From assembly GCF_003334305.1 (NCBI RefSeq), contig NZ_QOWS01000001.1: 64,000 bases of DNA; one strand, written 5' to 3'. Positions 55,297 to 55,832 of this stretch are shown here, in pieces. Below the pieces are notes generated by a model, which was given only the letters and a program-made list of their open reading frames with translations, had not been told where the DNA came from and searched no databases. Made by a program: the position numbers and the translations under genes. Source of the stretch: Escherichia coli (GTDB lineage: Bacteria > Pseudomonadota > Gammaproteobacteria > Enterobacterales > Enterobacteriaceae). How positions within the stretch are numbered: the stretch's first letter is position 1; each line of letters opens with the position of its first letter.

Positions 55297-55314
55297 TGTA
55301 CAATGAACTGTACA
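55297..55314 (+). promoter_or_regulatory. yefM-yoeB operator (two TGTACA palindromes)
   Basis: TTGTACAATGAACTGTACAA directly upstream of the yefM start. Confidence 0.7.
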
Positions 55315-55329
55315 AAAGAGGAGATTGAC

Positions 55330-55581
55330 ATGCGTACAATTAGCTACAGCGAAGCGCGTCAGAATTTGTCGGCAACAATGATGAAAGCCGTTGAAGATCA
55401 TGCCCCGATCCTTATTACTCGTCAGAATGGAGAGGCTTGTGTTCTGATGTCACTCGAAGAATACAACTCGCTGGAAGAGACGGCTTATCTACTGCGTTCC
55501 CCCGCTAACGCCCGGAGATTGATGGACTCAATCGATAGCCTGAAATCAGGCAAAGGAACAGAAAAGGACATTATTGAGTGA
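55330..55581 (+). CDS. yefM: Type II antitoxin YefM
   Basis: Internal ATG ([13 protein letters not shown]) of ORF 55303..55581 gives 83 aa; protein recognised. Confidence 0.93.
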
Positions 55582-55832
55582 AACTAATCTGGTCTGAGGA
55601 ATCATGGGACGATTATCTGTACTGGCAGGAAACAGATAAGCGAATTGTTAAAAAGATCAATGAACTTATCAAAGATACCCGCAGAACGCCATTTGAAGGT
55701 AAGGGGAAGCCAGAACCCCTGAAACATAATTTGTCAGGTTTCTGGTCCCGACGCATTACAGAGGAGCACCGTCTGGTATACGCGGTTACCGACGATTCAC
55801 TGCTCATTGCAGCATGTCGTTATCATTATTGA
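55578..55832 (+). CDS. yoeB: Type II toxin YoeB (ribosome-dependent mRNA interferase)
   Basis: 84 aa; start overlaps yefM stop; protein recognised. Confidence 0.93.

Follow-up and report, generated by a model that had tools for sequence, protein, structure and literature searches.

The chromosomal yefM-yoeB operon of Escherichia coli K-12 is one of the best-characterised toxin-antitoxin (TA) modules. The antitoxin YefM by itself binds the long (L) palindrome of the operator, which is its primary binding site, and then the short (S) palindrome, whereas the YefM2-YoeB complex binds L and S more tightly than YefM alone (PMC1802561). The L repeat lies over the -10 box and the S repeat over the start point, an arrangement that is said to exclude RNA polymerase (PMC7730913). 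Upon overproduction of Lon, or at 42 C, YefM is degraded by Lon, which frees YoeB (PMC7167474). The released toxin then moves into the ribosomal A site, where it cleaves mRNA behind the second position of the codon (PMC3814384). In YoeB, E46 serves as the general base, H83 as the general acid, and R65 and Y84 in transition-state stabilisation and orientation; R59, E63, and N51 are also named in the ribosome-bound YoeB structures (PMC3814384, PMC6821326). The physiological role, a stress response versus a selfish or neutral accessory cassette, is debated in the literature.

Here, a module of this kind was analysed in the window, by which we mean the whole 64-kb stretch of DNA under study. It is practically certain that the window carries the chromosomal E. 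coli YefM-YoeB type II TA module in its wild-type K-12 form. The module is already known and its annotation is correct, and the sequence holds nothing against this K-12-type reading. To judge from its identity with the tested K-12 module, it is almost certainly a working, self-repressing type II TA system.

The gene pair and the encoded proteins

The yefM stop and the yoeB start in the window share 4 bp, GTGA (55578-55581), and the same 4-bp overlap is annotated in K-12 MG1655 (yoeB, 2089211-2089465; yefM, 2089462-2089713). No frameshift or internal stop was found in either gene in the window sequence. The antitoxin gene comes first, with the toxin gene directly downstream on the same strand, and both genes are small and overlap, as in the order of a type II TA operon (Table 1). 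The GAGGAG ahead of yefM would act as its ribosome binding site. The antisense open reading frames within the module (40-64 aa) had no supporting evidence and were taken as chance.

Table 1. Positions of the features in and around the yefM-yoeB module; positions are those of the window, except in the last line, where they are those of loci from other genomes.
Feature	Position	Strand	Remarks
his attenuator, Rfam RF00514 His_leader	54898-55021	-	131.6 bits
hisL leader peptide (MTRVQFKHHHHHHHPD)	54997-55047	-	translated from the sequence
Presence/absence cassette with promoter, operator, and both genes	~55186-55837		~650 bp, 44% G+C
-35 hexamer TAGTTA of the yefM-yoeB promoter (pyy)	55276-55281	+	matches published 5'-TaGttA-3' (PMC7730913)
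Promoter spacer	55282-55298	+	17 bp, between -35 and -10
L (long) palindrome TCATTGTACAATGA	55293-55306	+	perfect; identical to the footprinted L repeat (PMC1802561)
-10 hexamer TACAAT	55299-55304	+	inside the L palindrome; published TAcAAT (PMC7730913)
S (short) palindrome core TGTACA	55309-55314	+	spans the transcription start
Transcription start G	55310	+	placed from published positions (PMC1802561); start base G (PMC7730913)
Shine-Dalgarno-like GAGGAG	55318-55323	+	6 nt 5' of the yefM ATG; read from the sequence
yefM, antitoxin and autorepressor	55330-55581	+	83 aa; ATG 55330, TGA 55579-55581
yefM ATG at +21	55330-55332	+	PMC1802561
yoeB, ribosome-dependent mRNA endonuclease toxin	55578-55832	+	84 aa; GTG 55578, TGA 55830-55832
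T19A/R65L yoeB of other genomes	L005:432-686, L009:739-993, L010:536-790		R65 change equivalent to window 55771

For YefM, all of the 83 residues were identical to those of PDB 2A6Q chain A (83/83, residues 4-86 of the chain). The protein matched the NCBIfam equivalog NF008499 with 186.6 bits (cut-off 121) over profile positions 1-83 of 83, and Pfam PF02604 at 7e-28. For YoeB, all of the 84 residues were identical to those of PDB 2A6Q chain E (84/84), and the identical sequence is also present in PDB 2A6R, 2A6S, 4V8X, 6OTR, 6OXA, and 6OXI. This protein matched the NCBIfam equivalog TIGR02116 with 132.8 bits (cut-off 51.8) and Pfam PF06769 at 3.1e-43, in both cases over profile positions 1-80 of 80. 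The window YoeB shares its sequence with the YoeB chains of the structures 2A6Q, 2A6S, 4V8X, and 6OXA and so has the RelE-like microbial RNase fold. Likewise, its identity with the tested K-12 protein suggests that YoeB alone would cause ribosome-dependent mRNA cleavage and growth arrest.

The residues E46, N51, R59, E63, R65, H83, and Y84 were all in place in the window translation. The sequence-only reading, an earlier account of this DNA, had described both genes as intact with overlapping stop and start codons, which holds, and had named a loss-of-function substitution at a catalytic residue of YoeB as the observation that would speak against a functional module; no such substitution was found, E46, R59, E63, R65, H83, and Y84 all being kept.

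Disarmed yoeB alleles do occur in the species, as seen in a sample of 5,426 complete E. coli genomes examined at the hisL-yeeZ site, and they lend some substance to the idea that the module in the window is a decayed or disarmed remnant, with genes that look intact, an inactive toxin, and nothing to neutralise. Three of the genomes checked, the ST131 genomes 5506 and MNCRE44 and strain SK1144, encode the YoeB variant WP_000767819.1 (T19A and R65L). The exact 47-mer with the L65 codon was found in 417 of the 5,426 genomes, and a sequence differing from the 47-mer by one base in 3,553; the yoeB of NU14 (phylogroup B2) retains R65. R65 makes contact with the scissile phosphate, and activity reportedly depends on it (PMC3814384, PMC6821326), so that the R65L allele probably encodes a YoeB of reduced or no activity. 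No paper in the library searched mentions this allele. In addition, an IS2 element lies directly after yefM in the ETEC isolate L6_E562 and splits yoeB (L007:2785-4372), which is a natural knock-out of the toxin with the antitoxin intact. However, the window carries neither the R65L change nor the IS2 insertion, and its YoeB is identical, R65 included, to the crystallised and biochemically active K-12 protein. We therefore regard a disarmed module in the window as very improbable.

Promoter, operator, and predicted working of the operon

The promoter-operator of the window coincided base for base with the published yefM-yoeB promoter-operator, in the -35 hexamer, the spacer, the -10 hexamer, the G at the start point, and the L and S palindromes. 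An operator was defined as paired TGTACA cores, 12 bp centre to centre and no more than 80 bp from the yefM start. The TGTACA-N6-TGTACA pair of the window (TGTACAATGAACTGTACA, 55297-55314) has its cores at 55297-55302 and 55309-55314, which are 6 bp apart and 12 bp centre to centre and end 16 bp before the yefM ATG. This was the only match in the 64-kb window, even when one mismatch was allowed, compared to 0.03 expected by chance, and in the shuffle control one match appeared in 3 of 100 shuffles. The operator, which had been described as preserved, is thus unique in the window and coincides with the published footprinted operator. The start at 55297 that had been given for the module is right for the operator motif, but not for the functional unit, which extends further upstream, to 55293 with the L palindrome and to 55276 with the -35 box.

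The mechanical list of open reading frames places the start of yefM at ATG 55303 instead of the real start at 55330. This extended frame (92 aa) would make the region coding sequence rather than an operator, and the TGTACA pair could otherwise be a chance match. However, published work describes the ATG equivalent to 55303 as a start codon that is not used, at -7 from the mapped start of transcription. Primer extension placed the transcription start 3' of this upstream ATG, which sits at -7 to -5, over-expressed yefM including the upstream ATG still gave the product from +21, and the DNase I footprints coincided exactly with the TGTACA repeats (PMC1802561). ATG 55303 is ruled out as the yefM start by this published mapping. 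The low chance expectation for the pair in the window and the GAGGAG upstream of ATG 55330 also argue against both a chance match and the extended frame. For K-12, whose sequence here is identical, this reading has already been disproved, and we give it next to no credence for the window.

A generic sigma-70 promoter scan of 54850-56000 found no promoter on the + strand ahead of yefM. This is a false negative, because the hexamers of the yefM-yoeB promoter fit only 8 of the 12 consensus positions, the -35 box being weak. A terminator scan of the same interval found no + strand terminator downstream of yoeB. Two hairpins were rejected as terminators: an AT-rich hairpin 3' of yoeB (~55838-55854, followed by a short T run), which was matched by 9 of 200 shuffles (z -1.73), and a hairpin at the left edge of the cassette (~55182-55197), with z about -1 on either strand. 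An Rfam search gave no RNA family within 55186-55837.

By analogy with the published K-12 work, all of the biochemical steps of the mechanism would apply to the window module as follows. One promoter (-35 at 55276, -10 at 55299, start G at 55310) would give a bicistronic yefM-yoeB mRNA, in which the two genes are probably translationally coupled, since the yoeB GTG overlaps the yefM stop. A YefM dimer would bind one YoeB and block its active site. Binding of YefM or of the complex would shut out RNA polymerase, so that the operon would repress itself, because the -10 box and the start point fall within the binding sites. The lability of the antitoxin towards Lon, the stability of the toxin, and the repression by the complex have been published for the identical K-12 proteins and may be expected here. 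In the cleavage step, E46 would act as general base and H83 as general acid, with R65 and Y84 stabilising the transition state, and translation would then stop. The earlier view that the module is likely functional and autoregulated is supported by this identity of the proteins, promoter, and operator with those of the characterised K-12 module.

The hisL-yeeZ site and its surroundings

The gap between the hisL start codon and the yefM ATG was 282 bp, equal to that in K-12, which agrees with the earlier placement of the module within ~300 bp of the his leader region. The his leader is transcribed opposite to yefM, and hisG and hisD come after hisL and the attenuator on the minus strand. Downstream of yoeB, yeeZ (55915-56739), yeeY, and plaP follow in the K-12 order. 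The further description of this position as the edge of a polysaccharide super-locus is only loosely right, as the entire his operon (47821-55047) separates the module from the nearest polysaccharide genes.

The hisL-yeeZ flanks were found in 5,424 of the 5,426 genomes. Module DNA was present in 4,217 of the 5,426 (~78%), always on the chromosome, and 1,193 (~22%), O157:H7, E. coli B, and SMS-3-5 among them, carried an alternative allele, in which a 210-bp filler replaces the DNA corresponding to window ~55186-55837. These breakpoints were read off an alignment with L002, an allele of the O157 type, and the position of the right edge may be off by 1-3 bp. The filler includes GCCGGATGCGGCG...GCCTTATCTGGTCTACA and an inverted partner, which are REP-like and putatively REP/BIME repeats. 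In a small number of divergent genomes, MEI4BO-21 among them, hisL and yeeZ are separated by only ~180 bp, and both cassette and filler are missing. These results indicate that the module behaves like a sharply bounded accessory cassette, in agreement with the review literature (PMC7167474). A literature search on the phylogroup distribution of yefM-yoeB returned only this general review.

The distribution bears on what the module does for its host. One reading accepts the biochemistry as described above and holds that the host gains no benefit, the module being an accessory cassette, selfish or neutral, that was acquired horizontally and is kept through addiction; it competes with a role in the stress response, not with the mechanism. 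The sharp edges, the absence of the cassette from ~22% of the complete genomes with a different filler at the same site, its G+C content of 44% (51-56% in the flanking genes), and the persistence of disarmed yoeB alleles in successful lineages all favour this reading, as do the reports, in the same review, of no fitness effect at 42 C and of no TA system common to four reference strains (PMC7167474). Conversely, the module is retained with identical or near-identical proteins in most of the lineages sampled, and Lon-dependent activation of YoeB at 42 C has been reported (PMC7167474). We consider the absence of host benefit a serious possibility, just short of being probable.

A role tied to the position has also been considered, in which the cassette acts as a local stabiliser or recombination marker of the his-linked polysaccharide region, or in which the yefM promoter, divergent from the his promoter, couples TA expression to his promoter activity. 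If this were true, the cassette or filler state could influence, or record, the ends of serotype-switching recombination tracts. The evidence at the hisL-yeeZ position extends only to a sharp biallelic site, and such a role strikes us as highly unlikely.

Several polysaccharide loci were observed further upstream. Between wzz and hisI, a 12-kb cluster on the + strand (35702-47782) contains manC, manB, ABC-transporter genes, a methyltransferase, a 1,213-aa glycosyltransferase, and others. This cluster is 100% identical to RefSeq genomes annotated with O8-family O-antigen export and synthesis genes, and the window therefore comes from an O8 strain; at least 80% of the cluster is held by 276 genomes. 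No open reading frame of at least 180 aa is present in the ~1.1 kb (34562-35701) that separate wzz from the first O8-cluster gene. A second cluster of six genes (24737-30498) follows a JUMPstart element (24737-24775) and seems to lie between galF and gnd, and the region 926-22189 is apparently a colanic-acid-type cluster, judged by the sizes and order of its genes. If these apparent assignments hold, three polysaccharide loci would stand in a row upstream of his.

Two Rfam matches above the gathering score were also seen. The sRNA STnc240 was matched upstream of plaP (57760-57834, + strand, 68.2 bits). The 'algC RNA' motif (13754-13803, + strand, 77.3 bits) was matched in the colanic-acid region, directly ahead of a 472-aa open reading frame (13760-15178).

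Overall, the analysis confirms the correct annotation, in an E. coli O8 strain, of a well-known TA module in its wild-type form. In practical terms it offers a reference point, the window allele being, by its sequence, of the active K-12 type. The contrast set consists of the approximately one-fifth of sequenced E. coli without the cassette and of a large group, ST131 strains included, with a yoeB allele altered at the active-site arginine. This is relevant to the use of yefM-yoeB as a marker or drug target and to deletion phenotypes compared across strains. The population results are modestly useful side results, which concern other genomes and are not a property of the window.

Comparison with described toxin-antitoxin systems

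Among more distant toxins, RelE, YafQ, and HigB have in common with YoeB the microbial RNase fold and the cutting of mRNA in the ribosomal A site (PMC3814384, PMC6821326). The profile matches of the window YoeB to RelE/StbE (23 bits, cut-off 27.9) and YafQ (22.8 bits, cut-off 87.25) were weak and below the cut-offs. YoeB differs from these toxins in having the canonical Glu/His acid-base pair and an antitoxin of the Phd/YefM family, not of the RelB family.

The pairs of Staphylococcus aureus (6L8E) and Mycobacterium tuberculosis (RelJK, Rv3357-Rv3358, 3OEI) and the 6N90 chain belong to the same fold families. The matches to these pairs, with E values of 1e-25 to 1e-32 for YoeB and about 1e-13 to 1e-15 for YefM, place them far more distant in sequence than K-12. 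These solved YoeB-YefM pairs also differ in operator and in oligomeric state (PMC7544224).

Axe-Txe of the Enterococcus faecium plasmid pRUM belongs to the same protein families as YefM-YoeB. Its operator resembles that of the window in the paired TGTACA cores, 12 bp centre to centre, and in the identical -10 hexamer TACAAT (PMC7730913). However, the L repeat of axe-txe lies in the promoter spacer and its -35 box is stronger, which accounts for its weaker repression, whereas in the window the L repeat lies over the -10 hexamer, as in the yefM-yoeB layout (PMC7730913). Axe-Txe is also plasmid-borne.

In contrast, both proteins of the window are 100% identical to those of yefM-yoeB of E. coli K-12 MG1655 (b2017, b4539; PDB 2A6Q, 2A6R, 2A6S, 4V8X, 6OXA), and many RefSeq genomes match an 867-bp region of the window at 100% identity and have yefM and yoeB annotated there. 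The window and K-12 also agree in the 4-bp overlap, in both promoter hexamers (-35 and -10), in both palindromes (L and S), in the 282-bp hisL gap, and in having yeeZ downstream; the host differs, the window coming from an O8 strain. Over the 650-bp cassette, six single-base differences from K-12 were found, of which three are synonymous in yefM, two lie far upstream, and one, at 55290 (C in the window, T in K-12), falls within the 17-bp spacer of the promoter, 3 nt upstream of the L palindrome. The latter, the sole upstream difference near the promoter, is outside both hexamers and both palindromes. The spacer varies in other strains too, as in RM9872 (55280, 55284, 55289, and 55291), and there is variation even at 55305, an outer base of the L palindrome. 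None of the six differences between the window and K-12 alters a protein or a regulatory motif.
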